Below are positions 11,773 through 31,906 of a DNA stretch of 44,043 nucleotides, one piece after another. The stretch is taken from assembly GCA_964390385.1 (NCBI GenBank), contig CAYMJH010000005.1:1-44043 (forward strand), written 5' to 3'. The notes under the pieces were generated by a model. It saw only the letters and a list, made by a program, of their open reading frames with translations. It was not told the origin of the DNA and did not search any database. Position 1 is the first letter of the stretch. The number at the start of each line of letters is the position of its first letter. Position numbers and translations under genes: made by a program. This DNA comes from an uncultured Bacteroidales bacterium. Its GTDB lineage: Bacteria > Bacteroidota > Bacteroidia > Bacteroidales > UBA10428.

Positions 11773-11800
11773 GTCGACCGTCGACCGTCGACGGTCGTCT
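11773..11800 (+). repeat. tandem heptamer array (GTCGACC x2, GTCGACG, GTCGTCT)
   Basis: Read directly. Contains three GTCGAC palindromes. Confidence 0.9.
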
Positions 11801-11932
11801 TGCTGCAACCGGTTTACTTCCTAAGGCCTGTAATATTTTGCAAATATTTTGCTCATTTGTCCCTTGCGTATTACTTTTACCGTTTGACGCTGAGGAAATT
11901 TCCCATGCGGCCCTAAACTAAAAGAAAAAACC

Positions 11933-12748
11933 ATGGATCAAAAGATCGCCATCCTGGGTGCAGGTAACCTGGGGACTTCACTCGCGAAGGGATTGCTGGC
12001 TTCACAGCAGGTAACCATCGCCGGACTGATCATGACCGATAAACGCGGACACCGGATCAGCTACCTTACGGAAAAGGGCTTTACCGTGACCGATGATAAT
12101 GCCGAAGCCGTGCGGCAGGCAAAAATAGTGGTCATGTCCATCAAACCCCAGCAGTTTGAAAACCTGGCACAGGAAATAAAAGACCATATAAGCCCCGATC
12201 ATGTCGTGTTATCCACCATTACCGGGGTGACCCTGAAAGAGATCGAATCGGCGCTCGGCAAGGTTCCCGTTTTCAGGATCATGCCCAATACAGCACTGGC
12301 CATCTGTGAATCCATGACCTGCATCACCTCAAAGAATGCCAATGCTGAACACCAGGAAATGGTAATGTCGATGTTCAATAAAATGGGAAGCACCCTTGAG
12401 ATCAGCGAAGATATGATGGGTGCGGCCACCGTGGTCGGCGCCTGCGGCATTGCGTTTGCCCTGCGATTCATGCGTGCCATGTCACAGGGAGGCATCGAGA
12501 TCGGATTCAATTCCGAAATGTCACAGCTCATTACGGCACAGACCGTAAAAGGGGCTGCCAGGCTGATCCTCGAGACCAACAACCACCCGGAACGGGAGAT
12601 CGACAAGGTGACAACCCCTCAGGGCATCACCATTTCGGGATTGAATGAAATGGAACACCAGGGCCTGAGTTCTGCGGTGATCAGGGGATTGATCACTTCC
12701 TTCACCAAACTGGAACACCTCATGGAGAAAGACTCCAAAAATAAATAA
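11933..12748 (+). CDS. proC: pyrroline-5-carboxylate reductase
   Basis: IAILGAGNLGTSLAKGL Rossmann start, and C-terminal TTPQGITISGL...  pattern of P5CR. Confidence 0.9.
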   Translation: MDQKIAILGAGNLGTSLAKGLLASQQVTIAGLIMTDKRGHRISYLTEKGFTVTDDNAEAVRQAKIVVMSIKPQQFENLAQEIKDHISPDHVVLSTITGVTLKEIESALGKVPVFRIMPNTALAICESMTCITSKNANAEHQEMVMSMFNKMGSTLEISEDMMGAATVVGACGIAFALRFMRAMSQGGIEIGFNSEMSQLITAQTVKGAARLILETNNHPEREIDKVTTPQGITISGLNEMEHQGLSSAVIRGLITSFTKLEHLMEKDSKNK

Positions 12749-12808
12749 GGAATATAAGAGGTTATTATCCGAAAAAATTTATTTTTGTCATTTAATACGC
12801 TGTCATTC

Positions 12809-13648
12809 ATGATCACCATTGAAGATTTTCCCGCATACCTGCTGGAGCAGTATAACAATTTCAAAAAGGAAGTCCCTTCGATGACCAAGGCTCACCGGTT
12901 TATTGACAACATGATCTATTTCCTGTTCCCGTTCAAAATCGACAAAAAATGCACCCGGCCTCTTATCGAGCTCAACCTGGCCCAGCTGCAGATCGACCTG
13001 CGCGACATACTGGATCCGCTTGAACCGGTGCTGGAGGAACCGGCCAGCAGCATCACCCGAAAATTCTTCTCCACGGTGCCCTCCATCTATGAAAGCCTGG
13101 TGCAGGATGCAAAGTTGTTTGTTGATTTTGATCCTGCTGCCAGATCGGTTGAAAGTGTGATCCTGTATTATCCCGGATTTTATGCCATAGCGGTTTACAG
13201 GCTTTCTCATGAACTCTTTAAGCTGAAGATTCCCTATCTGCCGCGCATGATCTCGGAATTTGCCCACAGCAAGACCGGCATTGACATTCATCCGGGAGCA
13301 CAGATCGGCAGCCATTTTTTTATCGACCACGGCACCGGGATCGTGATCGGGGAGACCACCGTCATCGGCAACAATGTAAAAATATACCAGGGGGTGACCC
13401 TGGGTGCCTTGAGCGTGGCCAAAAGTATGAAAGGAAAGAAAAGACATCCCACCCTCGGCGACAATGTGATCGTTTATTCAGGCAGCACCATACTGGGCGG
13501 AGACACGGTAATCGGTCATAATACGGTTGTAGGGGGGAATGTATGGCTCACCAAAAGCGTTGCGCCGAATTCCGTGGTTTATCACGAAAGCCAGGTAACG
13601 ATAAGAGACAGCAAGGACTTCAAGGAACCTATAAATTTTGTCATATAA
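12809..13648 (+). CDS. cysE: serine O-acetyltransferase
   Basis: [40 protein letters not shown]...[21 protein letters not shown] hexapeptide core. The track start at 12785 is TTG; the ATG at 12809 is more likely. Confidence 0.9.
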
Positions 13649-13652
13649 CGCC

Positions 13653-14564
13653 ATGAAAGCATCAAACATACTGGAAACCATAGGCAATACGCCTCATGTT
13701 AAACTCAACCGGCTCTTCCCTTCCACCCATGAGGTGTGGTTAAAACTTGAGCGGTTCAATCCGGGCGGAAGTATCAAGGACCGCATTGCCCTGGCCATGG
13801 TCGAGGATGCAGAAAAAAAGGGTCTGCTGAAACCGGGTTCGGTGATCGTTGAACCCACCTCGGGCAATACCGGCATCGGGCTTGCGATGGTGGCAGCCGT
13901 AAAGCAATACCGGCTCATCCTGGTGATGCCTGAATCCTTTTCAGTGGAAAGGCGCAAGATCATGGCTGCCTACGGGGCTGAATTTGCCCTCACGCCCCGT
14001 GAAAAGGGGATGAAAGGGGCCATTGAGAAAGCGCATGAGATAGCCGCATCCGATCCGGATGCCTGGATTCCCATGCAGTTTGAGAATGAAGCCAACATTG
14101 AAGTGCATAAAGCTACTACCGCCCGGGAGATCCTGAACGACTTTCCCGGGGGGATCGATTATCTGATCACGGGCGTAGGCACCGGGGGTCATATTACGGG
14201 CATTGCAGAGGTGCTCAAGCCGAAGTTTTCCGGGCTGAAAGTCTTTGCCGTTGAGCCTGAGCTTTCCCCCGTGATCAGCGGCGGACAACCCGGTCCGCAC
14301 CCGTTGCAGGGTATCGGTGCAGGCTTCATTCCCAAAAACCTGCATAAGGAAGTCCTTGACGGCGTCATTACCGTTTCAAAGGAGGAGGCTTTTCATTATG
14401 CACAAAGGATAGCAAAGGAGGAAGGCATTTTTGCCGGCATTTCTTCCGGTGCAACCCTCGCGGCATTGGCCAAAAAGCTGCCTGAAATACCTTCCGGTTC
14501 CCGGGTGCTGGTCATCAATTATGACAGCGGCGAACGTTATCTTTCGGTGGAAGGTTTGTTTTAA
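13653..14564 (+). CDS. cysK: cysteine synthase A (O-acetylserine sulfhydrylase)
   Basis: IGNTPHV...NPGGSIKDR...[16 protein letters not shown]...GTGGHITG. The track start at 13638 is TTG; the ATG is at 13653. Confidence 0.95.
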
Positions 14565-14668
14565 GGCGGGAAGGGGCCTGAAATACGGCGGATCATTACC
14601 GGATGATGGTAAAATGAAATATTTTCCCTATCTTTATTTGACAGGAAAATAATGCAATATTGCTGAAT

Positions 14669-15034
14669 ATGACGCATCCCGCCACCTTGTTATATGTAGA
14701 TGATGAGCCTCTGAACCTCCAGCTTTTTGCCTTTAATTTCAAGCATCTATTTGATATTAAGACCGCTGAATCGGGAGATGACGGTCTTGAGATCCTGCGG
14801 TCGGATCCTAATGTTTCGGTCGTTATCAGTGATATGAAAATGCCCGGCATGAACGGCATTGAATTCATCCAGAAGGCAAAGCAGCATTCTCCCGGGATCA
14901 TTTGTTTTATTCTCACCGGTTTTGACATCAACGATGAGATATTATTCGCCTTGCGGGAAAAGCTCATAAAAAAATACTTCAGAAAGCCGTTCAGCATGAA
15001 AGAGATTGAAAAGGCCATCCTGGAAGAACTTTGA
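14669..15034 (+). CDS. stand-alone response regulator receiver domain
   Basis: LLYVDDEPLNL...VVISDMKMPGMNGIEF...ILTGF...KPF CheY-like pattern with no output domain. The ATG at 14669 lies inside the TTG-started track ORF. Confidence 0.85.
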   Translation: MTHPATLLYVDDEPLNLQLFAFNFKHLFDIKTAESGDDGLEILRSDPNVSVVISDMKMPGMNGIEFIQKAKQHSPGIICFILTGFDINDEILFALREKLIKKYFRKPFSMKEIEKAILEEL

Positions 15035-15054
15035 CAACATTAACCCGCATTAGC

Positions 15055-16071
15055 ATGTACAACAGGATTATTATTAACATAAAACCCCTGGGTTTTATGT
15101 GGAATACCCTCGATCCGTTTTTGTTCTGTGTGCATCATCATGATCTTTATCCGGCTGCTAACGAAATGATGGGTCCTGCAGCATCGCTGAAGGGAAGGAA
15201 TATCGGACAGGATTTTACGCTGAGGGACGGATGGAGGATGTACCATGGGAAGACCGTTCCGGGATTCCCGGCACACCCGCATCGCGGATTTGAAACCGTT
15301 ACCGTAGTGCTGAACGGGTTGGTTGACCATTCGGATTCCCACGGGGCTGCCGGCAGGTACGGAAACGGAGACGTGCAATGGATGACAGCCGGTGCCGGAC
15401 TGCAGCACAGCGAAATGTTCCCCCTGCTGAACAGGGATGATGATAATCCGTTGGAGTTGTTCCAGATCTGGCTGAATCTTCCGGCTTCACGCAAATTTGC
15501 CAAACCGCACTATGCCATGCTCTGGGCTGAAGACATTCCGGTTTACAGGGCCAAAGATGAATCGGGTAAAACAATTGAGATAAGAATGGTGGCCGGTCGC
15601 CTGCATGATGTATCGGCCCCGCCTCCGGCACCGGATTCCTGGGCAGCTGACCCGGGCAATGACATAGCCATCTGGGTGATGAAACTCGAAGGCCATGCCC
15701 GGTGGACCATCCCGCCATCGGCACCCGGTGTGAACCGTATCCTGTATTTTTATAAGGGATCGGCTGTCCGTATTGCAGGAATCGAAATTCAGCCTTATCA
15801 GTCGGTTGAAATGATGGCAGAAGAGGAAGCAGTCCTTGAAAACGGCAAGGGGGATGGACTATTCCTCTTATTGCAGGGGCGTCCCATCAGCGAACCTGTA
15901 GTACAACACGGGCCTTTTGTAATGAATACAAACTCGGAAATCCAGCAGGCCATACATGATTTCTATGAGACCGGTTTCGGCGGCTGGCCCTGGCCACGGC
16001 CTGATATGGTGCATGGTTGGGAAAAGAAGCGCTTTGCGAAGTATGCAAATGGCCAGATGGAAGAGAGATAG
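15055..16071 (+). CDS. pirin family protein
   Basis: FPAHPHRGFETVTVVLNGLVDHSDSHG...VQWMTAGAGLQHSEMF cupin metal-site pattern of pirins. ATG at 15055. Confidence 0.9.
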   Translation: MYNRIIINIKPLGFMWNTLDPFLFCVHHHDLYPAANEMMGPAASLKGRNIGQDFTLRDGWRMYHGKTVPGFPAHPHRGFETVTVVLNGLVDHSDSHGAAGRYGNGDVQWMTAGAGLQHSEMFPLLNRDDDNPLELFQIWLNLPASRKFAKPHYAMLWAEDIPVYRAKDESGKTIEIRMVAGRLHDVSAPPPAPDSWAADPGNDIAIWVMKLEGHARWTIPPSAPGVNRILYFYKGSAVRIAGIEIQPYQSVEMMAEEEAVLENGKGDGLFLLLQGRPISEPVVQHGPFVMNTNSEIQQAIHDFYETGFGGWPWPRPDMVHGWEKKRFAKYANGQMEER

Positions 16072-16086
16072 GGAAAAGTAATCTTT

Positions 16087-16114
16087 GTCACTTGTCACTT
16101 GTCACTCGTCACTA
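16087..16114 (+). repeat. tandem heptamer array GTCACTT x2, GTCACTC, GTCACTA
   Basis: Read directly. Overlaps the stop and the last codons (..SDE*) of the minus-strand gene 16102-17616. Confidence 0.9.
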
Positions 16115-17616: not shown

Positions 17617-17627
17617 ATATCATGATT

Positions 17628-18203
17628 TTAGAATCGTGTCACCCCGCCTGTCATGGCGAATTTCATGACTTCGCCGGGCGGAAGGTCGAGCGGCCTGACG
17701 TGTTCCCTGGGAACGATGAACATTTCACCCGACCAGTTATAGGAATGGGGGAAGAGCACGGTCACCTTGTCCTTGATCCCCAGGTCAGACAGGTCCTCTG
17801 AGGTGATGAATCCCACTTTTTCGAGTTCCGAAACCAGGTTAACCTTCACCAGTACGGGCCTGGTGAATTTCTTCTTCTCGCCCACGAACGCATTGAAGAA
17901 ATCGGTGAGCGCGGAATAGAGCATCTTAACGATGGGAGCCTTTTCAAATAACCTGTTGATGAAGTTGCCGATGGGTTTGAACAGGATTGACTGGCCGATC
18001 CAACCCAGCAGGGCAATCACGGTAAAGGTGATAAGCAGTCCGATACCCGGTATCTGAACGTGGAAGATGCTGTTGACGTAGTTGCGCACAGGGCCGTCGA
18101 TCTTTTCAAACACCCAGTACAGGATAAAAATCGTAATGCCTGCCGGTGCAACCAGCAACAGGCCCTGAAGGAAGTAACGAAAGATCTTTTTCATAGAGAG
18201 CAT
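17628..18203 (-). CDS. DUF502 family membrane protein
   Basis: Two N-terminal TM helices (LLLVAPAGITIFILYWVF; GIGLLITFTVIALLGW) and a C-terminus ...P.SYNWSGEMFIVPREHV typical of DUF502. Confidence 0.75.
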   Translation of the reverse strand: MLSMKKIFRYFLQGLLLVAPAGITIFILYWVFEKIDGPVRNYVNSIFHVQIPGIGLLITFTVIALLGWIGQSILFKPIGNFINRLFEKAPIVKMLYSALTDFFNAFVGEKKKFTRPVLVKVNLVSELEKVGFITSEDLSDLGIKDKVTVLFPHSYNWSGEMFIVPREHVRPLDLPPGEVMKFAMTGGVTRF

Positions 18204-18392
18204 GGTATTTTTGTTTACGGTAATAAGCTGGTACTGATCATTGCGTTGTTGGCCAGATAAAGTTAGTATTAATGCGGATCAAGCGAAAGCAATATCGGCC
18301 AAATTTGCAGCCTTCATAATTATTTACAGGGTACCGGGAACGGGGAGCCTGTGCCTGAGCGGCGCAGGGATTTTTAAGGCTATCCTTAATAG

Positions 18393-18427
18393 CCTGGCAG
18401 CGTCGTCAGACCTGCCGGGTTTTTTTT
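18393..18427 (+). terminator. strong plus-strand intrinsic terminator with no upstream plus-strand gene
   Basis: cctggcagcgtc-gtca-gacctgccggg stem (about 10 bp with one bulge, tetraloop) followed by T8. Both neighbouring genes are on the minus strand. Confidence 0.6.
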
Positions 18428-18449
18428 CTGTACACCGGGGCAGGAACGT

Positions 18450-18800: not shown

Positions 18801-18830
18801 ATATACTTTGCAAAGGCCTTCCGGCCGGTG

Positions 18831-19754: not shown

Positions 19755-19971
19755 CCTAAAACTACCACAAAAAATTGTTATTTTTTACACCACCAAAGCA
19801 CAAAAACACGAAAAGAATACAGCCATTAGGTCTGCTTTGACCGATTGAATAATCAACCTGTTTAGTGCTTTTGTGTTTTTGTGGTTTGATGCTTTATTTT
19901 TACCGGTGGTCTCAGGTAAGCATGTTTTCAATATCTTTGTTGCTTTAACAAAGCCGGAATCCTTATATATC

Positions 19972-22011
19972 ATGCAAAAAAAATACAGGCGTCATCTTAT
20001 TACGGCGGCATTGCCCTATGCAAACGGGCCGGTTCATATCGGTCATCTCGCCGGGGTATATGTTCCTGCCGACATTTATGTCCGTTATCTTCGGATGAAA
20101 GGCGAAGATGTGATCTTCATCTGCGGCTCGGATGAGCACGGGGTGCCCATCACCATCAAAGCCCGGCAGGAGAAAGTCAGTCCACAGGACATCGTGGATA
20201 AATATCATGCCATCATCAAAAAGTCATTCGAGGAATTTGGCATTTCCTTCAGCATTTATTCACGCACCACATCGAAGGTACACTATCAGACAGCCTCCGA
20301 TTTTTTCAGCACCTTGTACAAAGGAGGCGAATTCATTGAGAAGACTTCCAGCCAGTATTATGACGAAGAGGTTAAGCAGTTCCTGGCCGACCGGTATATC
20401 ACCGGAACCTGTCCCCATTGCGGGAATGATTCAGCTTACGGAGATCAATGCGAGCGGTGCGGTACATCGCTTAACGCTACCGACCTGGTCAATCCCAGGT
20501 CGATGCTGAGCGGCAGCAAGCCGGTGATGAAAGACACTTTTCATTGGTTCCTGCCGCTGGACAGGCATGAAAAGGCCTTACGGAAGTGGATACTGGAGGA
20601 GCATAAAGACTGGAAGCCGAATGTATACGGACAATGCAAGTCGTGGCTTGATGCCGGCCTTCAGCCCCGCGCGGTCAGCCGCGATCTCGACTGGGGCATA
20701 CCGGTGCCGGTGGAAGGGGCGGAAGGAAAAGTACTGTACGTATGGTTTGATGCCCCCATAGGCTATATTTCGGCCACCCGGGAATTGCTTCCCGATGACT
20801 GGGAGAAATACTGGAAGCAGGATGATACCCGCCTGATCCATTTCATCGGCAAGGACAATATCGTATTTCACTGCATCATTTTCCCGGTGATGCTGAAAAC
20901 CCACGGGGAATACGTACTTCCCGACAACGTACCGGCCAATGAGTTCCTGAACCTCGAAGGGGATAAGATTTCGACTTCCCGCAACTGGGCGGTATGGCTT
21001 CATGAATACCTTGAGGAATTCAAGGGCAAGCAGGATGTGCTTCGGTATGTGCTTTGCGCCACCATGCCGGAGGCCAGGGACAATGATTTCACCTGGAAGG
21101 ATTTCCAGGCGCGCAACAACAACGAACTGGTAGCCATCCTGGGCAATTTCGTAAACCGTACCCTGGTGCTGACTCAGAAATACTTTGACGGTCGGGTGCC
21201 GGAACCCGGTATCATGCATGACGCCGACCAGCAGACCCTCGATGAGATAGGAAAGATTAAGCAGGCCGTTGAGGATAACCTCGATAATTTCCGATTCAGG
21301 GAAGCCCTGAAGGCAGGGATGGACCTGGCACGGCTGGGCAACAAGTACCTGGCCGATACCGAACCCTGGAAACTGATCAAAACCGATGCGGCGCGGGTCA
21401 TGACCATTCTGCACGTGTCGTTGCAGATTACGGCCAACCTGGTTATCATCATGGAGCCCTTCCTTCCGTTCACCTCGGCAAAACTGGCCGGTTACCTGAA
21501 CCTGAAGGGGCTGAGCTGGAAGGACGCCGGCAGCCTGTCGCTGCTGAAAGCAGGAGATGCCTTGAAAGAGCCCGGATTGCTGTTTGAGAAGATCGAGGAT
21601 GAGGCTGTGGAAAAACAACTGCAGAAACTGCAGAAAACCAAGGAGAGCAATGCGGGATTAAAGCCTGCCGCGAAGCCACAGAAGCCGGCCGTTACCTATG
21701 ATAATTTTGCCGCCATGGACATCCGTACGGCAACCGTGATCGAAGCCGTAAAGGTACCGAAAACCGATAAACTGATGCAGCTGAGGCTGGACACCGGCAT
21801 GGATGAACGTACCGTTGTTTCAGGTATTGCCGGGTTTTTCAGTCCCGAAGACCTGGCGGGCAAACAGGTATGCCTGCTGGCCAACCTGGAACCCCGGGTG
21901 ATCAAAGGAATCACCTCTCACGGTATGATACTGCTGGCCGAGAACGCTGACGGAAAGCTGGTGCTGGTAACACCCACGCAGGGAGTTAACAACGGCTCGG
22001 AAGTGAAATGA
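19972..22011 (+). CDS. metG: methionine--tRNA ligase with C-terminal tRNA-binding (Trbp111-like) domain
   Basis: [16 protein letters not shown] (HIGH), zinc knuckle CPHCGN...CERCG, KISTSRN (KMSKS). The ATG at 19972 is preferred over the track start at 19873. Confidence 0.97.
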
Positions 22012-22043
22012 AATTTGAAAATTTGAAGATTTGAAGATTTGAA
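22012..22043 (+). repeat. tandem octamer array (AATTTGAA x2, GATTTGAA x2)
   Basis: Starts on the base after the metG stop codon. Confidence 0.9.
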
Positions 22044-22108
22044 AGCCTTCCGGCAGGCAGGTTTGAAGGTCAGATTACGATGACATGGGTAGCAGATTGG
22101 GTATTTCT

Positions 22109-22136
22109 CCTTGTCCCTTGTCCCTTGTCCCTTCTT
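22109..22136 (+). repeat. tandem heptamer array CCTTGTC x3 plus CCTTCTT
   Basis: Ends 1 nt before the stop codon of the minus-strand SPOR gene. Confidence 0.9.
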
Positions 22137-22137
22137 C

Positions 22138-25124: not shown

Positions 25125-25138
25125 CACACCATTGCATT

Positions 25139-26176
25139 ATGATGAAATCATTGGTTTTGGTAACCGGAGGGACCGGATATATCGGTTCGCATACTGCGGT
25201 TGAGCTTATCCAGGACGGATATGAAGTAGTTATCGTTGATAATCTTTCCAATTCGCAGATCGGGGCATTGGATGGTATTGAGTCCATCACCGGTGTCAGG
25301 CCTCATTTTGAGAATTTTGACCTGTGCAACCTTGAGCAGCTGAGACAATGCTGCGGGAAATACCCCGGACTCAAAGCCATCATTCATTTTGCAGCGTTGA
25401 AGGCTGTGGGCGAATCGGTTGAAAAGCCCCTCGATTATTACCACAACAATTTTGAATCCCTGATCAACCTGTTGCGGGTCATGGGAGAATTCAACATACC
25501 CAGCCTGGTATTTTCTTCGTCCTGCACCGTTTACGGTCAGCCCGACAGATTGCCGGTCACCGAAGACTCTCCCGTCAAAACAGCCAGCTCCCCTTATGGC
25601 AATACCAAACAGGTTTCTGAGGAGATCATCCGGGATGCCATACAGGCGAATCCGGCCATTAAATGCATATCCCTGCGGTATTTCAATCCGGTAGGTGCCC
25701 ATCCCTCAGCTCTTATCGGCGAGTTGCCGCTGGGAGTGCCGCTGAATCTGGTGCCTTACCTGACACAGACTGTGATCGGCGACCGGCCTGAACTCAGGGT
25801 CTGGGGCAGTGATTATGAAACACCTGACGGAACCGGCATACGTGATTACATCTATGTGGTTGACCTTGCGAAAGCCCATGTGGTGGCGATAGGGAGGCTC
25901 ATGGAAAGCCGGAACAAAAAGCCCTATGAAGTATATAACCTGGGTACCGGGAAGGGCTATTCCGTAATGGAAATTATCAGGACGTTTGAAAAGGCTACCG
26001 GTGAAAAGGTTAATTACAAGGTTTACCCCCGCAGGCCCGGCGACATTGCCATGGTCTGGGCCGACACCACATTGGCCAATACAGAACTGGGCTGGAAGGC
26101 CGGCACTTCGCTGGAGCAAACCCTTTTCACCGCCTGGAGCTGGGAGAAGGCCCTGCATCACAAAAAAAGAATGTAA
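25139..26176 (+). CDS. galE: UDP-glucose 4-epimerase
   Basis: VLVTGGTGYIGSH...SSSCTVYG...PYGNTK...LRYFNPVGAH. Confidence 0.93.
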   Translation: MMKSLVLVTGGTGYIGSHTAVELIQDGYEVVIVDNLSNSQIGALDGIESITGVRPHFENFDLCNLEQLRQCCGKYPGLKAIIHFAALKAVGESVEKPLDYYHNNFESLINLLRVMGEFNIPSLVFSSSCTVYGQPDRLPVTEDSPVKTASSPYGNTKQVSEEIIRDAIQANPAIKCISLRYFNPVGAHPSALIGELPLGVPLNLVPYLTQTVIGDRPELRVWGSDYETPDGTGIRDYIYVVDLAKAHVVAIGRLMESRNKKPYEVYNLGTGKGYSVMEIIRTFEKATGEKVNYKVYPRRPGDIAMVWADTTLANTELGWKAGTSLEQTLFTAWSWEKALHHKKRM

Positions 26177-26186
26177 TCCTGCCCGT

Positions 26187-27242
26187 ATGAAAAAGACCAT
26201 TCTGATCACAGGGGGCGCAGGTTTTATAGGCTCCCATGTCGTACGGCTTTTTGTCAGCAAGTACCCCGATTACCAGGTTGTCAACCTGGATAAGCTGACC
26301 TATGCCGGGAACCTTGAAAATCTGAAGGATATAGAATCAAAGCCGAATTACCGGTTTGTAAAAGCCGACATTATTGATGCCCTGGCCCTGCAACAGCTCT
26401 TCAGGGATTATGATTTCGACGGTGTCATCCACCTGGCAGCTGAATCGCATGTTGACAGGTCGATCACCAATCCCATGGAATTCATCCAGACCAACATCAT
26501 CGGCACTACCAATCTGCTGAACGCAGCCAGGATAGCCTGGAAGGACAAAACATCAGGCAGGGTTTTCTACCATATTTCCACCGATGAAGTGTATGGCTCG
26601 CTGGAGAAAGGAGGCTATTTTTCGGAGGAGACGGCTTATGACCCCAGGAGTCCCTATTCTGCTTCCAAGGCAGGATCGGACCACCTGGTAAGGGCTTATT
26701 ACAATACATACGGGCTTCCGGTCCTGCTTTCCAACTGTTCCAACAATTATGGTCCCAATCAGTTCCCTGAGAAGCTCATCCCGCTTGCGATCAATAACAT
26801 CCTCAACAGAAAAAGCATCCCGGTATACGGTAAGGGCGAAAACATACGCGACTGGCTTTTTGTGGAAGACCATGCCAGGGCCATCGATGTGATCTTTCAT
26901 CACGGCAGGATCGGAGAAACCTTTAATATTGGCGGCAATAACGAGTGGAAGAACATAGACCTGATCCGCATGCTTTGCAGGATCATGGATAGCAAACTGG
27001 GCAGGGCTGAAGGGGAATCGGAAAAGCTCATCACCTATGTTAAGGACAGGGCGGGGCATGATCTCCGTTACGCCATTGATGCCGGGAAGCTAAAAAGGGA
27101 TTTAGGATGGGAGCCTTCCCTTACCTTCGAGCAAGGCCTGGGCAAAACGGTCGACTGGTATCTTGAAAACAAGGAATGGCTGCAGCATGTGCTTACCGGT
27201 GACTATGAGAAGTATTATGAGCGGCAGTATGTGAAAAGGTAA
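26187..27242 (+). CDS. rfbB: dTDP-glucose 4,6-dehydratase
   Basis: MKKTILITGGAGFIGSH...DKLTYAGNLENL...STDEVYG...PYSASKA. The track ORF from 25986 is an upstream extension overlapping galE. Confidence 0.93.
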   Translation: MKKTILITGGAGFIGSHVVRLFVSKYPDYQVVNLDKLTYAGNLENLKDIESKPNYRFVKADIIDALALQQLFRDYDFDGVIHLAAESHVDRSITNPMEFIQTNIIGTTNLLNAARIAWKDKTSGRVFYHISTDEVYGSLEKGGYFSEETAYDPRSPYSASKAGSDHLVRAYYNTYGLPVLLSNCSNNYGPNQFPEKLIPLAINNILNRKSIPVYGKGENIRDWLFVEDHARAIDVIFHHGRIGETFNIGGNNEWKNIDLIRMLCRIMDSKLGRAEGESEKLITYVKDRAGHDLRYAIDAGKLKRDLGWEPSLTFEQGLGKTVDWYLENKEWLQHVLTGDYEKYYERQYVKR

Positions 27243-27243
27243 G

Positions 27244-27275
27244 AAGTGACAAGTGACAAGTGACAAGTGACGAGT
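27244..27275 (+). repeat. tandem heptamer array AAGTGAC x4 (+GAGT)
   Basis: Begins 2 nt after the rfbB stop. It is the reverse complement of the GTCACTn arrays at 27367-27394 and 16087-16114. Confidence 0.92.
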
Positions 27276-27366
27276 ATAAACCTTATTTAACTGAGATATG
27301 ATGATTTGTGATTAGGATATTTTCGAACACATTATTACCTGATGCTCTCGTCCCTTTCCTTTTCTT

Positions 27367-27394
27367 GTCACTTGTCACTAGTCACTGGTCACTA
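27367..27394 (+). repeat. tandem heptamer array GTCACTT/GTCACTA/GTCACTG/GTCACTA
   Basis: Ends 2 nt before the glmS stop codon (minus strand). Inverted relative to 27244-27271, with 25/28 bases complementary. Confidence 0.92.
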
Positions 27395-27396
27395 AT

Positions 27397-29232
27397 TCAT
27401 TCCACCGTCACCGACTTTGCCAGGTTACGGGGCTGGTCTACATTGCATCCGCGCATGACGGCGATATAATAGGAGATCAGCTGTAACGGGATCACGGCGA
27501 GCAAAGGTGTAAAGACAGGATCGGTGACCGGGATCTCAAGCACGTGGTCGGCCATTTTGGTGATGGTAGTCTCTCCTTCGTTGACAATGGCAATGACAAT
27601 ACCGTTACGTGCTTTGACCTCCTGGATATTACTGACAATTTTTTCGTAGGAAGAATCCTTGGTAGCCAGCACAACCACAGGCATCTTATGGTCGATGAGG
27701 GCGATGGGGCCGTGTTTCATTTCAGCTGCCGGGTAACCTTCGGCATGGATATAGGAGATCTCTTTCAGCTTCAGGGCTCCTTCAAGGGCCACCGGGAAGA
27801 GATAGCCCCGGCCCAGGTAGAGGAAATTATTGGCCAGTTTGTAAAGCGAGGCTATATTGCGGAACTTGTCGTTCTGGGCCAGGATTTTCTCGATTTTTTC
27901 CGGCACTTCGGTAAGTGATTTTATATAGGACCGGTATTGCTCCTGCGACATAACATTTTTCCGGCGGCCAACCAATATGGCCATCATGGCCAGCACGGTC
28001 ACCTGTGCTGTAAAGGCCTTTGTGGAAGCCACCCCGATCTCGGGACCGGCATGGGTATATACCCCGGCATCTGTTTCACGGGGGATGCTGGACCCGACAA
28101 CGTTGCAGATGCCCAATACCAGGGCGCCGGCTTCTTTGGCCAGCTTGACGGCCGCGAGGGTATCGGCGGTTTCACCGCTCTGGCTGATGGCAATTACGAC
28201 CTCTTCATGATTGATGATGGGATTGCGGTACCGGAATTCCGAGGCATATTCCACTTCCACGGGAACACGGGCCAGGTCTTCGAAGAGATATTCCCCCACA
28301 AGGCCGGCATGCCATGAAGTGCCGCAACCGATAATGACAATGCGTTTGGCAGCCACCAGACGGTCCATCACATTATAGAGGCCTCCCAGGTAAAGTTCGT
28401 TGAGATCGGCCCCAACCCTTCCGCGAAAGGTGTCCTGGATTGACCGGGGCTGTTCAAAGATCTCCTTGAGCATGAAGTGCTTGTATCCCCCTTTGTCAAT
28501 TTCCCCGATGCCCAGGTCGAGCTGGTGAATGCGGGGTGTTAGCGGGTCATTTTTCAGGGTCTTGAGCACAAGTCCGTCCTTCGAGATGATGGCAACATCA
28601 TCATCATTCAGGTAGATCACGCTCTTGGTATATTCTATTATGGGCGTGGCATCGGATGCAAGAAAGTATTCATTATTGCCGACGCCGATGACCAGGGGAC
28701 TCCCCTTGCGGGCGGCGATGAGCTTATCGGGCTCGTCGGTGCAGGCGATAACCAGTCCGTAAGCCCCCACCACCTTCGACAGGGCAAGCCTTACCGCTAT
28801 TTCGGCACTGGTTTTCCCCTGTTCGTATATGTGCTCAATGAGATTGACCAGTACCTCGGAATCGGTTTCACTCTGAAATTTGATGCCCATGGATAACAAG
28901 GTTTCCTTAAGCCGGGCGTAGTTCTCAATAATGCCGTTGTGTATGAGGATGAACTTGCCATGAAAGGATTTGTGGGGATGGGCGTTGACATCATTGGGTT
29001 CGCCATGAGTTGCCCAGCGTGTATGGCCCATTCCGATGGACCCTGAAACATTGTTGCCCGTGATGTAGCGTTCAAGGTCTGAAACCTTGCCTTTGCACTT
29101 ATAAACACTGGTAGGATGGTTCACGATGGCGATGCCTGCCGAGTCATAGCCCCGGTATTCAAGCCTTTTGAGACCATTGATCAGCACATTATAGGCATCA
29201 CGATAACCGATATATCCAACAATTCCACACAT
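27397..29232 (-). CDS. glmS: glutamine--fructose-6-phosphate aminotransferase
   Basis: MCGIVGYIG N-terminal nucleophile, two SIS domains, C-terminal ...NLAKSVTVE. Confidence 0.97.
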   Translation of the reverse strand: MCGIVGYIGYRDAYNVLINGLKRLEYRGYDSAGIAIVNHPTSVYKCKGKVSDLERYITGNNVSGSIGMGHTRWATHGEPNDVNAHPHKSFHGKFILIHNGIIENYARLKETLLSMGIKFQSETDSEVLVNLIEHIYEQGKTSAEIAVRLALSKVVGAYGLVIACTDEPDKLIAARKGSPLVIGVGNNEYFLASDATPIIEYTKSVIYLNDDDVAIISKDGLVLKTLKNDPLTPRIHQLDLGIGEIDKGGYKHFMLKEIFEQPRSIQDTFRGRVGADLNELYLGGLYNVMDRLVAAKRIVIIGCGTSWHAGLVGEYLFEDLARVPVEVEYASEFRYRNPIINHEEVVIAISQSGETADTLAAVKLAKEAGALVLGICNVVGSSIPRETDAGVYTHAGPEIGVASTKAFTAQVTVLAMMAILVGRRKNVMSQEQYRSYIKSLTEVPEKIEKILAQNDKFRNIASLYKLANNFLYLGRGYLFPVALEGALKLKEISYIHAEGYPAAEMKHGPIALIDHKMPVVVLATKDSSYEKIVSNIQEVKARNGIVIAIVNEGETTITKMADHVLEIPVTDPVFTPLLAVIPLQLISYYIAVMRGCNVDQPRNLAKSVTVE

Positions 29233-29310
29233 AGACCTGTTTTTAAGGTGATTGGTCAGGACTGATTTTATGGTAAATATTACAGAAAAGGATCCAGCCG
29301 GTATTCAGCA

Positions 29311-29351
29311 TTCCGCAAAACAACAGGCAGGGTGAACCTGCTATTTGCCTG
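29311..29351 (-). terminator. possible terminator after the glycogen synthase-like gene
   Basis: On the minus strand, caggca...tgcctg, with an alternative gcagg/cctgc stem, is followed by ttgttttgcgg. The stem is weak and irregular. Confidence 0.3.
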
Positions 29352-29395
29352 CAGGAAACACAGTCCATCAACAAGGGAGGAAGTAATGTTCCGGA

Positions 29396-30214
29396 TCATT
29401 TGTGATGGGTATTGAGAATACGGTCATAAAAATCGGAATAGGCGTCGATATACTTCTCCGCAGGCTGATAAGGTAAAAGAGGGATACCCGATTTTTTGAT
29501 ATAACTTGTAATTTCAGGCGCAATATGCTGACTACCGATAATAATACCATCTGACATATTGATGGCCAGCTTGCACATATTAACGTAAGTAGGGTTCTCA
29601 ATCACAGCAAGGTCTTTTTCCGGGATATCGTCCTGCAGCATTTTTTTCCGCAATGCTTTATTGAGTGATTTCGGAAACTCGTTATTGTAGATCGACAGCA
29701 CTATTTTGGAACGCTTGAAAATGGGATCGTCCTGATAGACCCTTTTGATATAAACGGGCAGCAGCGAAGAGAACCAGCTGTGGCAATGGATCAGGTCAGG
29801 GGCCCATTGCAATTTTTTTACCGTTTCCGCAACACCGCGTGCAAAAAAAACAGCCCTTTCGTCATTGTCGTCGAAAAAGGCTCCCTTTTCATCCTGCAAT
29901 ATGTATTTTCGCTGAAAATAGTCCTCGTTATCAATGAAGTAGATCTGCATACGGGCTGCCTGTATGGAGGCAACCTTGATGATCAGCGGATGGTCGGTGT
30001 CATCAATGATGATATTCATCCCTGAAAGACGAATAACCTCGTGGAGCTGGTTTCTCCGTTCATTGATGCAACCGAATTTTGGCATGAACGTCCTGATCTC
30101 CCGTCCTTTTTCCTGGATCCCCTGCGGAAGGTTCCTGCCGATCAGTGACATTTCTGATTCAGGTAGATAAGGAGTAATTTCCTGGGATACGAACAGTACT
30201 TTCGAACCTGCCAT
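29396..30214 (-). CDS. short glycogen/starch synthase-like protein (GT5 N-terminal domain type)
   Basis: KVLFVSQEITPY...GREIRTFMPKFG...DLIHCHSWFSSLLP pattern of starch-synthase catalytic domain proteins. Confidence 0.8.
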   Translation of the reverse strand: MAGSKVLFVSQEITPYLPESEMSLIGRNLPQGIQEKGREIRTFMPKFGCINERRNQLHEVIRLSGMNIIIDDTDHPLIIKVASIQAARMQIYFIDNEDYFQRKYILQDEKGAFFDDNDERAVFFARGVAETVKKLQWAPDLIHCHSWFSSLLPVYIKRVYQDDPIFKRSKIVLSIYNNEFPKSLNKALRKKMLQDDIPEKDLAVIENPTYVNMCKLAINMSDGIIIGSQHIAPEITSYIKKSGIPLLPYQPAEKYIDAYSDFYDRILNTHHK

Positions 30215-30305
30215 TTAGCTCTGCTATGTTTCCGTAAGAATGATCCGCAAAGTTACTAAAAAATATTAACATTTCCATAGAAGTGAAGGATAAACCTTTA
30301 ATGGT

Positions 30306-30417
30306 GAGCCAAGAGCCAAGAGCCAAGAGCCAAGATCTAAGATCTAAGATCTAAGATCTAAGATCCAAGATGTAAGACAAAAGAACAAAGAATAAAGAAC
30401 AAAGATTTTCGATATTC
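30306..30417 (+). repeat. 16-unit heptamer tract: GAGCCAA x4, GATCTAA x4, then drifting GAnnnAA units
   Basis: Strict 7-nt phase kept across gagccaa(4) gatctaa(4) gatccaa gatgtaa gacaaaa gaacaaa gaataaa gaacaaa gattttc gatattc. Confidence 0.92.
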
Positions 30418-30418
30418 A

Positions 30419-30470
30419 ATCACCCCTCCTTCTCCCGATGAATCGGGATTCGGAGGGCAAAGCAAATCAC
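30419..30470 (-). repeat. 52-bp palindromic (REP-like) element, copy 1
   Basis: atcacccctccttctcccgatgaatcgggattcggagggcaaagcaaatcac. Nested stems ccctcc/ggaggg and tcccga/tcggga with symmetric ttc/ttc internal loops. Overlaps the tcdA stop codon. Confidence 0.88.
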
Positions 30471-31213
30471 CGGATAACCCCAAGCAGGTCACGGATGACC
30501 ACTGAGGCGCAATAGCAACCAAAAACCGGGGGCATATAGGAGATGGTGCCCACCACCGAGCGTTTGTTTTCCTCTCCGCTCACTTCCCTGACCGTTTCTT
30601 TGGCCACCGGCTCGGGAGAATAAACCACCGTAATGCCGGTGCGGACACCCAGTCGATGCAGGTATTTACGGACTATATAGGCAAAACGGCAATGGTGCGA
30701 TTCAGCTATGTCGGCGACCCTGATCTTCTCGGGATGCAGACGGCCGCCGGAACCCATGGAACTGACAACACGATGGCCTTTTTTTACGGCGCCGGCAAGC
30801 AAATGCACTTTCGGCGTAAGGGTGTCGATGGCATCCACAACATAGTCATAGCTATGGTCGAGGACAGGAGCAAACTGGTCTTCTTTCAGATAGGCGTTAA
30901 CCACTTCAATTTCAATGGCCGGGTTTATGTCGTTCAGACGGCCGGCCATGGCATCCGCCTTTTTCATGCCTTCATTGCTCAACAAGGCAAGGATCTGGCG
31001 GTTACGGTTGGAAAAATGAATGGTGTCGCCGTCGATCAGTGTTAATTTGCCAATACCTGCCCGGCACAGCATTTCGGCTGCATAGCCTCCCACGCCGCCC
31101 AATCCTGCCACCAGTACGTGGGAACGGGAAAGCTTGCCGATACCTTCCTCTCCTATGAGCAATGATGTTCTTTCTGTCCAGTTTTCCATACCTTTTAAGG
31201 TGTGCCGAAGCAA
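30467..31213 (-). CDS. tcdA: tRNA threonylcarbamoyladenosine dehydratase (ThiF/E1-like)
   Basis: VLVAGLGGVGGYAAEMLCRAGIGKLTLIDGDTIHFSNRNRQ. An alternative start MENWTERT at 31189 would remove the overlap with tatD. Confidence 0.85.
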   Translation of the reverse strand: MLRHTLKGMENWTERTSLLIGEEGIGKLSRSHVLVAGLGGVGGYAAEMLCRAGIGKLTLIDGDTIHFSNRNRQILALLSNEGMKKADAMAGRLNDINPAIEIEVVNAYLKEDQFAPVLDHSYDYVVDAIDTLTPKVHLLAGAVKKGHRVVSSMGSGGRLHPEKIRVADIAESHHCRFAYIVRKYLHRLGVRTGITVVYSPEPVAKETVREVSGEENKRSVVGTISYMPPVFGCYCASVVIRDLLGVIR

Positions 31214-31857
31214 TGGGTAAAATTCTGCCGGATCTGCTTCATCAGAGAGCTAAAAGGAATTTGTTTCAGCCGGGCAGCCTGTTTATATATATCCCCGATG
31301 GCAATACCTGAATCATCGGTTTCAAGGAATATGGAATCAACCGGCAGGGATGAAAATATCCGGTATGCCTTACTGTTCTCATTAAACAATATATGCCCGA
31401 AAGAGAGATAGCAGTTCCTGCTGATCAGCTCCCGGGCTATTTCCCCGCTGGCATTGAACCAATGAAATATCCAGGGGATCTTCTGATCGGTACTGTCACG
31501 GTATGTGATCATTTCATTATAGGCCTTTACACAATGGAGGATGACGGGCCTGCGAAGCTTTTCTGCAATAAAAAGCTGTCTTTCGAACACATACGACTGA
31601 GTTTCCCACGATACATCGATCATTTTGTCAAATCCGATTTCTCCTATGGCCAGCACAGCGGGATTGCCCGATTGCTTTTCCACCCATTCGAGTTTCTTTT
31701 CCATGGAAGTTTCATGGATATTCCAGGGATGCAGGCCGACGGAAAAAAAGCACGGATGAGAGAATTTCTCCTCTTCATCCGGAAATACGTTCAGCAAAAG
31801 CCTCGTGTTTTCAAGGTGGTAATAGGTGTGGGTGTGGATGTCGATGTAGGAGTCCAA
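31195..31857 (-). CDS. TatD family metal-dependent hydrolase
   Basis: YIDIHTHT...GLHPW...AIGEIGFD...PVILHC...ETD pattern. Confidence 0.85.
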   Translation of the reverse strand: MDSYIDIHTHTYYHLENTRLLLNVFPDEEEKFSHPCFFSVGLHPWNIHETSMEKKLEWVEKQSGNPAVLAIGEIGFDKMIDVSWETQSYVFERQLFIAEKLRRPVILHCVKAYNEMITYRDSTDQKIPWIFHWFNASGEIARELISRNCYLSFGHILFNENSKAYRIFSSLPVDSIFLETDDSGIAIGDIYKQAARLKQIPFSSLMKQIRQNFTHCFGTP

Positions 31858-31866
31858 AGTATGAAA

Positions 31867-31906
31867 GTTTACAGGTTTACAGATTGACAGGTTTACAGAT
31901 TCAGAT
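31867..31906 (+). repeat. tandem ~16-bp repeat (gtttacag, gtttacagattgacag, gtttacagattcagat)
   Basis: Read directly. Located between the tatD start and the gltX stop. Confidence 0.85.

Follow-up and report, generated by a model that had tools for sequence, protein, structure and literature searches.

The window (the whole stretch of DNA analyzed here, 44 kb in length) derives from an uncultured Bacteroidales bacterium. It carries short tandem-repeat arrays beside the pgk, pirin, PD40/TolB-like, metG, SPOR/HU-CCDC81, rfbB, glmS, tcdA and gltX genes, all named correctly in the initial annotation, which had listed at least eight arrays of about four 7- to 8-bp units. Arrays were called by TRF, which recovered all eight where they had been placed and confirmed the proposed length of ~28 nt (Table 1). 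Arrays of period 7 with four copies and no more than two mismatches occurred six times in the window versus never in 200 first-order Markov simulations, indicating that chance is excluded. At the same stringency, one four-copy array was detected at period 8 and none at period 6 or at periods 9 to 12.

Table 1. Repeat arrays, hairpin elements and terminator in the window
Feature	Position	Strand	Context	Basis
pgk intrinsic terminator, classic hairpin then U6	~11705-11740	+	between pgk stop and GTCGACC array	RNA fold of 11683-11830 and sequence
GTCGACC x4 array	11769-11800	.	90 nt past pgk stop, ~130 nt before proC	TRF 11769-11797, GACCGTC x4.1
AAGTGAC x4 (TolB-like gene sense)	16085-16114	-		TRF 16085-16113, TTGTCAC x4.1
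Inverted octamer arrays CACNAAAA / TTTNGTG, 55-nt loop	19786-19896	.	divergent spacer upstream of metG	TRF, pair I10
ATTTGAAG-type octamer x4.2	22011-22044	+	begins at metG TGA stop	TRF unit AAATTTGA
AAGGGAC x3.6-4 (SPOR/HU-CCDC81 sense)	22109-22136	-	1-4 nt past TAA stop	TRF 22109-22133, CCTTGTC x3.6
AAGTGAC x4.6	27244-27275	+	begins 1 nt past rfbB TAA stop; left arm of inverted pair	TRF
AAGTGAC-type x4.3 (glmS sense)	27364-27394	-	2 nt past glmS TGA stop; right arm of inverted pair	TRF 27364-27393, CTTGTCA x4.3
Composite heptamer array	30306-30417	-	tcdA sense: AAAGAAC-like, TTAGATC x5, TTGGCTC x4	TRF 30306-30405: GAGCCAA, GATCTAA, AAAGAAC blocks
59-nt hairpin element copy A	30419-30477	-	directly 3' of tcdA stop, abuts composite array	repeat family D8, fold, covariance model R1
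CTGTAAAC-type octamer x4 (gltX sense)	31867-31906	-	43-nt spacer before tatD	TRF 31867-31901, GTTTACAG x4
59-nt hairpin element copy B	31905-31963	-	inserted in last gltX codons	repeat family D8, fold, covariance model R1

The stop codons are genuine, as alignments to family models reach within 0-11 residues of the ORF ends. The arrays had been described as lying within 0-15 nt of a stop, which held for the TolB-like, metG, SPOR, rfbB, glmS and gltX genes (0-4 nt, or with the stop inside the array) but not for pgk (90 nt) or tcdA (50 nt). The TGA of the TolB-like gene falls inside the second AAGTGAC unit, and the array occupies the entire 30-nt spacer between this gene and the convergent pirin gene, placing it also 13-15 nt past the pirin stop (13 nt by TRF coordinates). 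At metG, the TGA stop and the TGA of every unit of the octamer array share one register. At gltX, insertion of hairpin copy B gave the protein an 18-residue foreign tail, and the TGA ending the extended ORF comes from the first unit of the adjoining array. The composite array is located between hairpin copy A and the promoter region of a glgA-like gene. A ninth site is the inverted octamer pair upstream of metG (19786-19813 and 19869-19896), so that arrays are not confined to 3' ends. This pair belongs to a ~140-nt insertion common to the window and the closest relative lineage.

The units were diverse within this one window (GTCGACC, ATTTGAAG, AAGTGAC, TTAGATC and CTGTAAAC). AAGTGAC was shared by three arrays, and AAGGGAC was present in one, a recurrence that independent random seeds leave unexplained and that counts against an origin by slippage. 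Units had been considered related, which is correct for the one-base variants GTCACTT and GTCCCTT but not for GTCGACC, which differs from GTCACTT at three to four positions.

We examined period and copy number in ~0.92 Mb of pooled sequence from many phyla. Period-7 arrays dominated, with 293 versus 20, 41 and 16 at periods 6, 8 and 9, and perfect tracts of at least 2.5 units numbered 185 at period 7 versus 19, 33 and 3. Copy number by TRF peaked at four (34, 75, 44 and 15 arrays with three, four, five and six copies) and did not fall steadily, which could mean a footprint and counts against slippage. It is quite improbable, in our view, that the arrays are sites bound in a 7-nt register by a putative protein with a footprint of about four units. 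Such a protein could be an OB-fold protein of the cold-shock or S1 type acting on RNA or single-stranded DNA, or one that shapes the nucleoid or DNA topology by binding double-stranded DNA in convergent spacers. Four is the commonest copy number across unrelated units and phyla, as in Xanthomonas, purines make up 66% of the gene-sense strand in stop-adjacent arrays, a genome prefers particular units (in the window, three arrays of AAGTGAC), and CspB binds heptamers with one protein per unit (MacGregor 2015, PMC4679880). Against binding stand the diversity of units within 44 kb, the counts of perfect tracts, which fall steadily with length and show just a shoulder at four units, and the absence of arrays from close relatives with the same genes; no candidate protein was identified.

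Placement was compared in the pooled loci with an expectation of uniform placement within spacers. Arrays lay no more than 8 nt from a stop codon in 41 cases versus 13.7 expected among arrays outside the search pattern, and in 22 versus 7.2 among pattern-selected arrays. Thus, the claim that arrays adjoin stop codons beyond chance was borne out by an approximately threefold excess. No excess was detected at start codons in the same loci (13 versus 11.9 expected for unselected and 7 versus 7.5 for selected arrays). Expansion alone does not predict the stop excess, because inserted units do not shift an array towards the stop; the excess requires either that arrays arise preferentially at stops or that the remaining spacer is constrained. 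Array starts clustered between -12 and +8 nt relative to the stop, dropping sharply beyond one unit length, and the stop codon was often itself the first unit (ccgg TAG CCGGTAG x3; gctt TAA GCTTTAA x4; ggaag TAG GAAGTAG x3; caag TGA CAAGTGAC; and, at metG, gaaa TGA AATTTGA). Spacers of every type held arrays at similar density (per kb: convergent 2.5, tandem 2.0, divergent 1.6), versus 0.1 in coding sequence.

About one-third of the pooled arrays formed inverted pairs. Arrays of AAGKGAC had a downstream inverted partner in 40 of 126 cases and an upstream partner in 5, and the motif was stop-proximal (within 20 nt) in 22 of 48 gene-sense cases versus 8 of 51 antisense cases. These orientation and downstream biases count against slippage. 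AAGTGAC was found in 22 viral loci, and two control heptamers of matched composition in 10 and 14; the motif is not special, and unit sequences are diverse.

Comparison of relatives revealed fast turnover. Two loci 99.6% identical over 20.2 kb (L001 and L002) had a sole internal indel between them, one 7-nt unit in the TGGYTCC array. Composite arrays were built from blocks whose units carry point mutations. Syntenic relatives whose GlmS is 82-85% identical were almost array-free: gene order was kept, with at least 10 arrays in the window, none in L181 or L182 and one in L183. The glmS, rfbB, metG and SPOR arrays had no same-site counterpart in relatives with 94% identical GlmS, a comparison that does not extend to the TolB-like and gltX sites. 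The arrays are thus lineage-restricted. The consistent position at gene ends had been taken to argue against random slippage, a conclusion that is not supported, given near-identical strains that differ by exactly one unit and syntenic relatives that lack arrays. The arms, but not the loop, of the metG-upstream pair were conserved between two lineages, and three lineages retained the TGGYTCY block that lies 5' of the glgA-like gene, both of which count against slippage.

As the initial annotation had noted, hairpin-plus-U terminators were scarce in the window. The rfbB and glmS arrays constitute an inverted pair (I1/I2; 90% complementary, 89-nt loop) that folded as a 28-bp stem of -53.1 kcal/mol with z = -5.6 (fold of 27238-27400). 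Transcribed arrays, especially inverted pairs, might form long U-less hairpins right after the stop that act in bidirectional termination or mRNA 3' protection, with single arrays as half-sites or as spacers holding the terminating ribosome off the structure. We regard such a role in RNA 3'-end formation as rather unlikely, although the rfbB/glmS stem, the scarcity of canonical terminators in the window, the downstream bias of inverted partners, heptamer blocks nested and mirrored across both arms in two loci (L024 and L054), and GC-rich palindromes at the glmS/rfbB site of relatives (a perfect stem of ~22 bp in L006) agree with it. In Xanthomonas, heptamer repeats coincide with transcript starts or stops more often than control repeats do (Rehm et al. 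2015, PMC4692102), which also favors this role and counts against slippage. However, the metG/SPOR and TolB-like arrays had no significant structure (z about 0), divergent spacers also hold arrays, and the glmS-rfbB spacers of L181 (30 nt) and L183 (0 nt) carry none. The self-complementary GTCGACC array (GTCGAC palindromes) pairs with itself, with z = -5.2 for the whole spacer (11683-11830), but sits behind a fully adequate pgk terminator. The gltX and tatD genes, separated in the window by an array plus hairpin, overlap in a relative and presumably are co-transcribed, which argues against arrays as obligate terminators.

It is highly unlikely that the arrays mark the ends or footprints of small MITE- or REP-like non-autonomous mobile elements targeting gene 3' ends, with the arrays acting as terminal inverted repeats or as sites favored by the 59-nt hairpin. 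The rfbB/glmS and metG-upstream units do resemble inverted-repeat ends around an unrelated core, hairpin plus array form an insertion into the gltX end, arrays flank the 59-nt hairpin in the window and five other loci (L175, L177, L178, L176 and L170), and two pairs in one Pyrinomonadaceae genome (L023/L084) have a common loop sequence. However, loops were unrelated between genomes and mostly also within genomes, the two hairpin copies adjoin arrays of different units, single arrays have no partner, 1 Mb of array-rich loci yielded no further hairpin copies, and no transposase was linked to arrays in the window.

On balance, we favor the view that the arrays are heptanucleotide, sometimes octanucleotide, SSRs, born by slippage and surviving only from the stop codon outwards, and that they probably represent the LSSR(5-11)/heptameric SSR/STRR-like class, proliferated in one uncultured Bacteroidales lineage. 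The observed period-7 specificity, one-unit indel, point-mutated blocks of composite arrays, lineage restriction and stop codons serving as first units count for slippage, as do the occurrence of arrays in every spacer type and, between gltX and tatD, inside a likely operon, the diverse units and the published Xanthomonas and Nostoc parallels. Strand slippage during replication would duplicate a 7-nt segment, followed by expansion or contraction by whole units. Loops of at least 5 nt escape MutS-type mismatch repair. A 7-nt duplication would frameshift a coding sequence, and the first harmless position would be the unit containing the stop codon itself, so that arrays would accumulate outwards from the stop and in the dead space between terminator and promoter. 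Length-dependent expansion and contraction would hold most arrays near four units. Inverted pairs could result from two facing arrays of one unit or from an arm copied by template switching, giving a long hairpin. At convergent gene ends, such hairpins may secondarily serve as U-less bidirectional terminators or RNA 3' stabilizers.

STRR repeats are tandem heptamers in non-coding DNA, with several unit families per genome and units such as CCCCAGT, TTGGTCA and CAACAGT; to our knowledge, their function has been unresolved since 1990. Set against them by description, the window arrays are likewise tandem non-coding heptamers in several unit families, with different units and a different host phylum. 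REP units, which are 20-40 nt long, are imperfect palindromes that have a conserved head and are associated with a RAYT transposase. The window arrays resemble REP/BIME and U-less ("I-shaped") hairpin terminators in their extragenic placement 3' of genes and within convergent spacers and, for the inverted pairs and 59-nt element, in hairpin potential; unlike REP/BIME, they are head-to-tail 7-mers, most of them not palindromic.

The cyanobacterial heptanucleotide STRRs (Calothrix PCC 7601) appear as reference 39 of Rehm et al. (PMC4692102). In the summaries given in PMC4679880 and PMC4692102, LSSR(5-11) (Mrazek, Guo and Shah 2007) are tandem 5-11 nt units with heptamers most abundant, intergenic bias, phylogenetically scattered repeat-rich genomes and polymerase slippage as the proposed origin. 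The window arrays fit that unit size, heptamer abundance and intergenic bias, whereas LSSR(5-11) is a statistical class for which those summaries describe neither stop-codon anchoring nor inverted pairing. TAACTGA direct repeats of marine Beggiatoaceae, Cyanobacteria and five Bacteroidetes are intergenic arrays of two to six copies (MacGregor 2015, PMC4679880). As in the window-type arrays, one unit is favored per genome and the same unit recurs in distant phyla, but TAACTGA arrays lie mostly a few nt upstream of start codons in forward orientation, where window-type arrays show no excess. The TTTTGAT heptads of the Vibrio cholerae ctxAB promoter, as outlined in 10.1101/2021.05.14.444153, are tandem 7-nt units of variable number upstream of a promoter and bind a regulator. 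They resemble the CTTGATT arrays of L177 and L001 and the TGGYTCY block that precedes the glgA-like gene, but occupy a single locus, whereas the window arrays recur next to stop codons.

The initial annotation knew of no matching element class, yet heptanucleotide SSRs have been described in Xanthomonas and Nostoc (Rehm et al. 2015, PMC4692102). Those repeats (GGGNATC and GGGGA(C/T)T) are 7-nt units that clearly favor four copies; 89-93% are intergenic and ~40% occur in inverted pairs. They vary extensively in length and sequence between close relatives and have no link to gene function, their function being unknown. The window arrays share the 7-nt units, about four copies, intergenic position, inverted pairs and variability between relatives. 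The Xanthomonas and Nostoc units carry G3-4 tracts, and the authors tied the four-unit preference to G-quadruplex formation (PMC4692102). In contrast, G tracts are absent from AAGTGAC, GTCGACC, ATTTGAAG and CTGTAAAC and number just three in AAGGGAC x3.6; the window units cannot form G-quadruplexes, and the host is an uncultured Bacteroidales bacterium. The arrays belong to the already described bacterial heptamer-repeat class.

All eight arrays described in the initial annotation were recovered by TRF, with 3.6-4.6 copies and 25-34 nt each; the tcdA-downstream site proved, by TRF and by sequence, to be a ~100-nt composite of heptamer blocks. The gene names were borne out as well (pgk, proC, pirin, PD40/TolB-like, metG, SPOR/HU-CCDC81, galE, rfbB, glmS, glgA-like, tcdA, tatD and gltX), and because the family-model alignments end only a few residues from the ORF ends, the stop codons are genuine. 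Counting four-copy arrays with at most two mismatches, we found six of period 7 and one of period 8 in the window, and none of period 6 or 9-12. No four-copy period-7 array appeared in 200 first-order Markov simulations. By TRF and simulation, the arrays are tandem repeats of 7-nt units (within the 5-11-nt range) beyond chance length. The genome favors particular units: of the arrays in these 44 kb, three are AAGTGAC and one is AAGGGAC.

Coordinates of the features discussed, in the window unless another locus is named
Feature	Locus	Coordinates (nt)	Remark
Low-GC region	window	1-10000	four-copy heptamer arrays: none
Tandem duplication, first pair	window	1637-1946 vs 4020-4347	~2.4-kb period
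Tandem duplication, second pair	window	2348-2687 vs 4751-5090	~2.4-kb period
Intrinsic terminator after pgk	window	11705-11740	separate from the array
Insertion upstream of metG	window	19755-19985	~140 nt, inverted octamer arrays
Same insertion in a relative	L001	19140-19400	
Inverted pair upstream of metG	window	19786-19813 with 19869-19896	octamers
Longest rfbB ORF	window	25986-27242	TTG start
rfbB array	window	27244-27275	
glmS array	window	27364-27394	inverted copy of the rfbB array
TGGYTCY block	window	30306-30335	tcdA-glgA spacer
TGGYTCY block	L002	8899-8925	
TGGYTCY block	L006	4820-4842	
59-nt hairpin element, two copies	window	30419-30477 and 31905-31963, minus strand	
gltX 3' end	window	31901-31963	hairpin element in place of the last codons
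AGGGACA x3.4 array	L183	1904-1927	in a called radA-like ORF
Mirrored-block hairpin	L024	5024-5250	Pyrinomonadaceae
Mirrored-block hairpin	L054	~7113	Pyrinomonadaceae; minus strand

Two further features of the window were observed. GC content is 33-44% in the first 10 kb and ~50% in the remainder, and the low-GC part contains a tandem duplication in which upstream regions 86-93% identical, including a T12-14 run, are followed by paralogous genes ~72% identical; the arrangement resembles a gene cassette duplicated within an island. The longest rfbB ORF overlaps galE by ~190 nt, and as residue 70 is where the family-model alignment begins, translation probably starts near 26190.

Every window array with 3.5 copies or more was intergenic or overlapped a gene at its stop codon only. 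Three convergent spacers hold five arrays that start 0-4 nt past the stops of metG, SPOR, rfbB, glmS and the TolB-like gene. The TolB-like stop lies inside the second unit of its array, and the gltX ORF is terminated by a TGA in the first array unit. Under uniform placement, the chance that all four arrays of the two larger convergent spacers would adjoin a stop is ~1e-4, by our own arithmetic from array and spacer lengths. The claim that the arrays lie within 0-15 nt of a stop codon held for six of the eight but failed for pgk and tcdA: the GTCGACC array, whose palindrome GTCGAC lets it pair with itself, lies 90 nt beyond the pgk stop, with a classic hairpin and U6 terminator and then a second hairpin in between, and the tcdA array lies 50 nt beyond its stop, behind the 59-nt hairpin element. 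Read in gene sense, four of the five convergent-spacer arrays are AAG[T/G]GAC.

A scan of species-representative genomes for (AAGKGAC)x3 returned at least 116 stretches, and their 8-kb loci were pooled with the window (0.92 Mb). Taxa among the matches listed were Pyrinomonadaceae, Bacteroidales, Kapaibacteria, Oscillatoriaceae, Clostridia, Planctomycetota, Chloroflexota, Gammaproteobacteria and others. The pooled loci carried 293 arrays of period 7, ~126 of which were selected by the search pattern itself, and 20, 41 and 16 arrays of periods 6, 8 and 9. Among non-selected arrays, TRF copy number peaked at four (34, 75, 44 and 15 arrays at 3, 4, 5 and 6 copies), and perfect tracts fell steadily in number with length, with a mere shoulder at four units and a sharp drop above 4.5.

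In these loci, which were chosen for containing an array and in which neighboring arrays are not fully independent, 41 non-selected arrays lay within 8 nt of a stop codon when 13.7 were expected from uniform placement within each spacer, and 22 selected ones when 7.2 were expected. Numbers near start codons were at chance level (13 against 11.9 non-selected and 7 against 7.5 selected, on the same expectation), the genes being long ORFs with exact stop but rough start positions. Array starts were concentrated between -12 and +8 nt around the stop and dropped steeply past one unit length. Of the AAGKGAC arrays in gene sense, 22 of 48 lay within 20 nt of a stop, and of the antisense ones, 8 of 51. 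Array density per kb was 2.5 in convergent, 2.0 in tandem and 1.6 in divergent spacers, and ~0.1 in coding sequence.

In viral contigs, (AAGTGAC)x3 was found at 22 loci, against 10 and 14 for two composition-matched control heptamers. Since this is only about twice the controls, the wide distribution reflects heptamer arrays generally; AAGTGAC as a specially conserved cross-phylum motif was rejected, and in our reading its distribution does not speak for a conserved recognition factor. The phyla with arrays include Bacteroidota, Acidobacteriota, Cyanobacteria, Planctomycetota and Gammaproteobacteria. It is conceivable, although improbable in our judgment, that four-unit arrays fixed no more than one unit length from the stop codon constitute a cross-phylum 3'-end element, independent of G-quadruplexes, that is read in register or written by an enzyme. 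The reader would be conserved, for instance an RNA-binding protein of the OB-fold type or the ribosome as it terminates, the writer could be a dedicated lineage-specific enzyme, and the arrays could replace canonical terminators in phyla largely without them.

In many stop-adjacent arrays, the first unit was formed by the stop codon together with the bases preceding it (ccgg TAG CCGGTAG x3; gctt TAA GCTTTAA x4; ggaag TAG GAAGTAG x3; gacagg TGA CAGGTGA x3; caag TGA CAAGTGAC; TAG tgac AAGTGAC; and, at metG in the window, gaaa TGA AATTTGA). The gene-sense strand of stop-adjacent arrays was 66% purine and contained stop triplets in all three frames in 24 of 62 arrays, against 13 of 62 antisense, a bias consistent with the stop lying in the first unit. 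A 7-nt duplication that includes the stop spares the protein, and one placed a codon upstream causes a frameshift; the stop codon is therefore the first permitted site.

Blocks of point-mutated units within composite arrays point, on sequence grounds, to local expansion. In Pyrinomonadaceae we observed long hairpins of successive different heptamer blocks mirrored in both arms, for example (AAGTGAC)n(AATCGTG)4 - loop - (CACGATT)4(GTCACTT)n, and two such units in one genome (loci L023/L084) have a common loop sequence. The mirrored blocks of loci L024 and L054 point either to one arm having been copied from the other or to selection favoring pairing.

The rfbB and glmS arrays of the window are 90% complementary across an 89-nt loop and fold to a 28-bp stem (-53.1 kcal/mol, z = -5.6). 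The second inverted pair of the window lies in the divergent spacer upstream of metG, and between the window and the relative L001 its arms are conserved and its loop is not. Among pooled arrays, an inverted partner within 200 nt was found downstream for 40 of 126 and upstream for 5. MITEs have terminal inverted repeats, a target-site duplication and a multi-copy conserved core. Array-like inverted ends were found on two units; the loops between inverted arms, however, were unrelated between genomes, with one within-genome exception, and a MITE-like origin of the arrays is very improbable. The insertion that forms the metG-upstream pair (CACNAAAA / TTTNGTG) sits between the metG promoter region and a divergent peptidase S66 gene; L001 shares it, and L006 and L181 are without it.

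Folding detected no significant structure in the metG/SPOR spacer or at the TolB-like array (z about 0). Consensus terminator scans of the window were near chance (30 against 22.1 +/- 5.5 and 24 against 18.2 +/- 4.6) with no hit at the arrays, and the pgk terminator was the sole clear intrinsic one in these spacers. No T run follows any window array, in the sequence or in the terminator scans, which ruled out that the arrays are intrinsic terminators, in which a U run directly follows a GC-rich stem-loop. A scan of the whole window against Rfam 15 (E <= 1) gave one weak chance match, inside glmS, and none at the arrays or the 59-nt hairpin element.

This element is a two-tier hairpin, GCCCTCC-GAA-TCCCGnn...nnCGGGA-GAA-GGAGGG, with a symmetric GAA/GAA internal loop. 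Its exact stems recur in 12 metagenome contigs (L169-L180; GC 0.41-0.63), the base pair that closes the apical stem covaries (A-T vs C-G), and in several contigs the hairpin lies within or beside 7-9-nt arrays with the same unit on either side. No further copies turned up when ~1 Mb of array-rich loci was searched with a covariance model, and a general role as partner or driver of the arrays was rejected on that ground; we treat the hairpin as a side feature. In the window, the gltX ORF reads through the hairpin and ends ...SDLLCPPNPDKPGEGGVI, the first array unit supplying the stop; the L006 ORF ends ...KASKV and overlaps the tatD start. That gltX and tatD overlap in L006 and are separated here by an inserted hairpin and array argues against an obligate terminator role, and so do the array-free spacers of relatives. 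A role in RNA 3'-end formation or termination, at least for the arrays paired as hairpins, is on present evidence unlikely.

Syntenic loci of relatives were obtained via GlmS homologues. Arrays of 7-8 nt were present in L001-L005 (GlmS 94% identical) and L006 (87%), mostly with different units at different sites; 14-22 kb of the more distant L181, L182 and L183 (85%, 83% and 82%) contained none, none and one, respectively. The glmS-rfbB spacer could not be aligned between lineages: the relatives have GC-rich palindromes, not heptamers (in L006 a perfect stem of ~22 bp), and the spacer is 30 nt long in L181 and 0 nt in L183. In the 20.2-kb MAFFT alignment of L001 with L002 (99.6% identity), the sole internal indel is exactly one 7-nt unit, inside the TGGYTCC array. 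Arrays thus characterize some lineages, and judging from these comparisons they come and go rapidly, differ by whole units and are dispensable to the genes they follow. In the tcdA-glgA spacer a TGGYTCY block is kept in three lineages. It lies upstream of the glgA-like promoter region (TAACTTTG, with a TAnnTTTG-type -7 box), and the remaining spacer diverges. The one-unit difference between L001 and L002 lies in this block. The L183 array in the radA-like ORF lies within the last 13 codons and may be another case of a C-terminus absorbing an array. An assembly artefact was rejected, the arrays being shorter than one sequencing read and orthologous arrays being identical in independent NCBI and JGI assemblies (L001, L003 and L004).

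Placement, one-unit polymorphism, lineage restriction and the stop-in-unit pattern are direct observations; as their explanation we lean, on balance, towards slippage-born heptanucleotide repeats in a prone lineage, purged from coding sequence and held near four units. Loops the size of a unit escape mismatch repair, and heptanucleotide arrays would be born by slippage in a lineage prone to such repeats. Selection would purge them from coding sequence, so that they would accumulate outwards from the stop codon and also in the stretches separating terminators from promoters. Gain and loss governed by length would hold them near four units. Inverted pairs would form when two convergent genes each acquire one in their own sense, or through template switching from arm to arm.

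A purely neutral account is hard to square with several observations: the threefold stop-codon excess, a copy number that is most often four, units shared within a genome, the orientation bias, the metG-upstream pair with its conserved arms and unconserved loop, and the persistence of TGGYTCY upstream of the glgA-like gene. They leave room for the 3'-end role and the MITE-like origin, and for a protein that reads the 7-nt register, the last of which we hold to be rather improbable.

Heptamer repeats have been noted in bacteria since about 1990 and surveyed since 2007, and we know of neither an established function nor an established mechanism for them. If they are mere slippage products, the arrays would still mark hypervariable sites useful in strain typing, and they can still rewrite C-termini, as at gltX in the window, and mislead terminator and small-RNA predictions. 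If they are functional, they would bear on transcript ends in phyla poor in canonical terminators.

REP/BIME elements are many-copy imperfect palindromic units of 20-40 nt with a RAYT transposase, whereas the arrays are direct 7-mers and the 59-nt hairpin has two copies in the window and none further in 1 Mb. CRISPR arrays (24-48-nt repeats with unique spacers) were ruled out, the units being contiguous 7-8-mers without spacers, and so were phase-variation repeats of promoters or 5' coding regions, the arrays following housekeeping stops (metG, glmS, gltX) with no excess at starts. TAACTGA arrays of Beggiatoaceae, Cyanobacteria and five Bacteroidetes lie mostly just upstream of start codons, in forward orientation (MacGregor 2015, PMC4679880), unlike the present arrays, whose start adjacency is that of chance.

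The initial annotation was right that placement is non-random but not that no described class matches, since one exists (Mrazek 2007, as cited in PMC4692102; Rehm 2015, PMC4692102). According to the accounts of Mrazek 2007 in PMC4679880 and PMC4692102, heptamers are the most abundant of the 5-11-nt long simple sequence repeats, LSSR(5-11), the genomes rich in them are phylogenetically scattered, and polymerase slippage is the proposed origin. The GGGNATC heptamers of Xanthomonas and Nostoc form 70-75 inverted pairs per genome, vary extensively between Xcc and Xac, and are mostly transcribed, with function unknown (Rehm 2015, PMC4692102).

The window arrays share all defining traits of this Rehm-type class with the sole exception of G-quadruplex potential. 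Like it, and like LSSR(5-11), they avoid coding sequence (~2 per kb in pooled spacers against 0.1); they prefer about four units, in the window and at the pooled TRF peak; they adjoin or overlap stops with a strand preference (six window arrays, the pooled excess and the sense bias); they form inverted pairs (two in the window, besides the 40 pooled arrays); and they vary among close relatives, by one unit at 99.6% identity and by differing or absent arrays in syntenic loci. The G-quadruplex subclass of Rehm et al. has at least four G3 tracts per array. No G3 tract occurs in AAGTGAC, GTCGACC, ATTTGAAG, CTGTAAAC, TTAGATC or TTGGCTC, and the AAGGGAC array, with three GGG tracts and one GG, falls one tract short of four. 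These unit sequences exclude a G-quadruplex explanation, so G-quadruplexes cannot be what underlies the preference for four units or the anchoring at stop codons. The window adds a lineage, an uncultured Bacteroidales bacterium, in which the published hallmarks (four units, stop-codon adjacency, strand bias and inverted pairs) recur with units incapable of forming G-quadruplexes, which weakens the sole structural explanation offered so far. It also sharpens their description, the array starting within one unit of the stop and the stop often lying in the first unit. Its value lies in showing these hallmarks, in a phylum-level setting new for them, with units that lack G-quadruplex potential.
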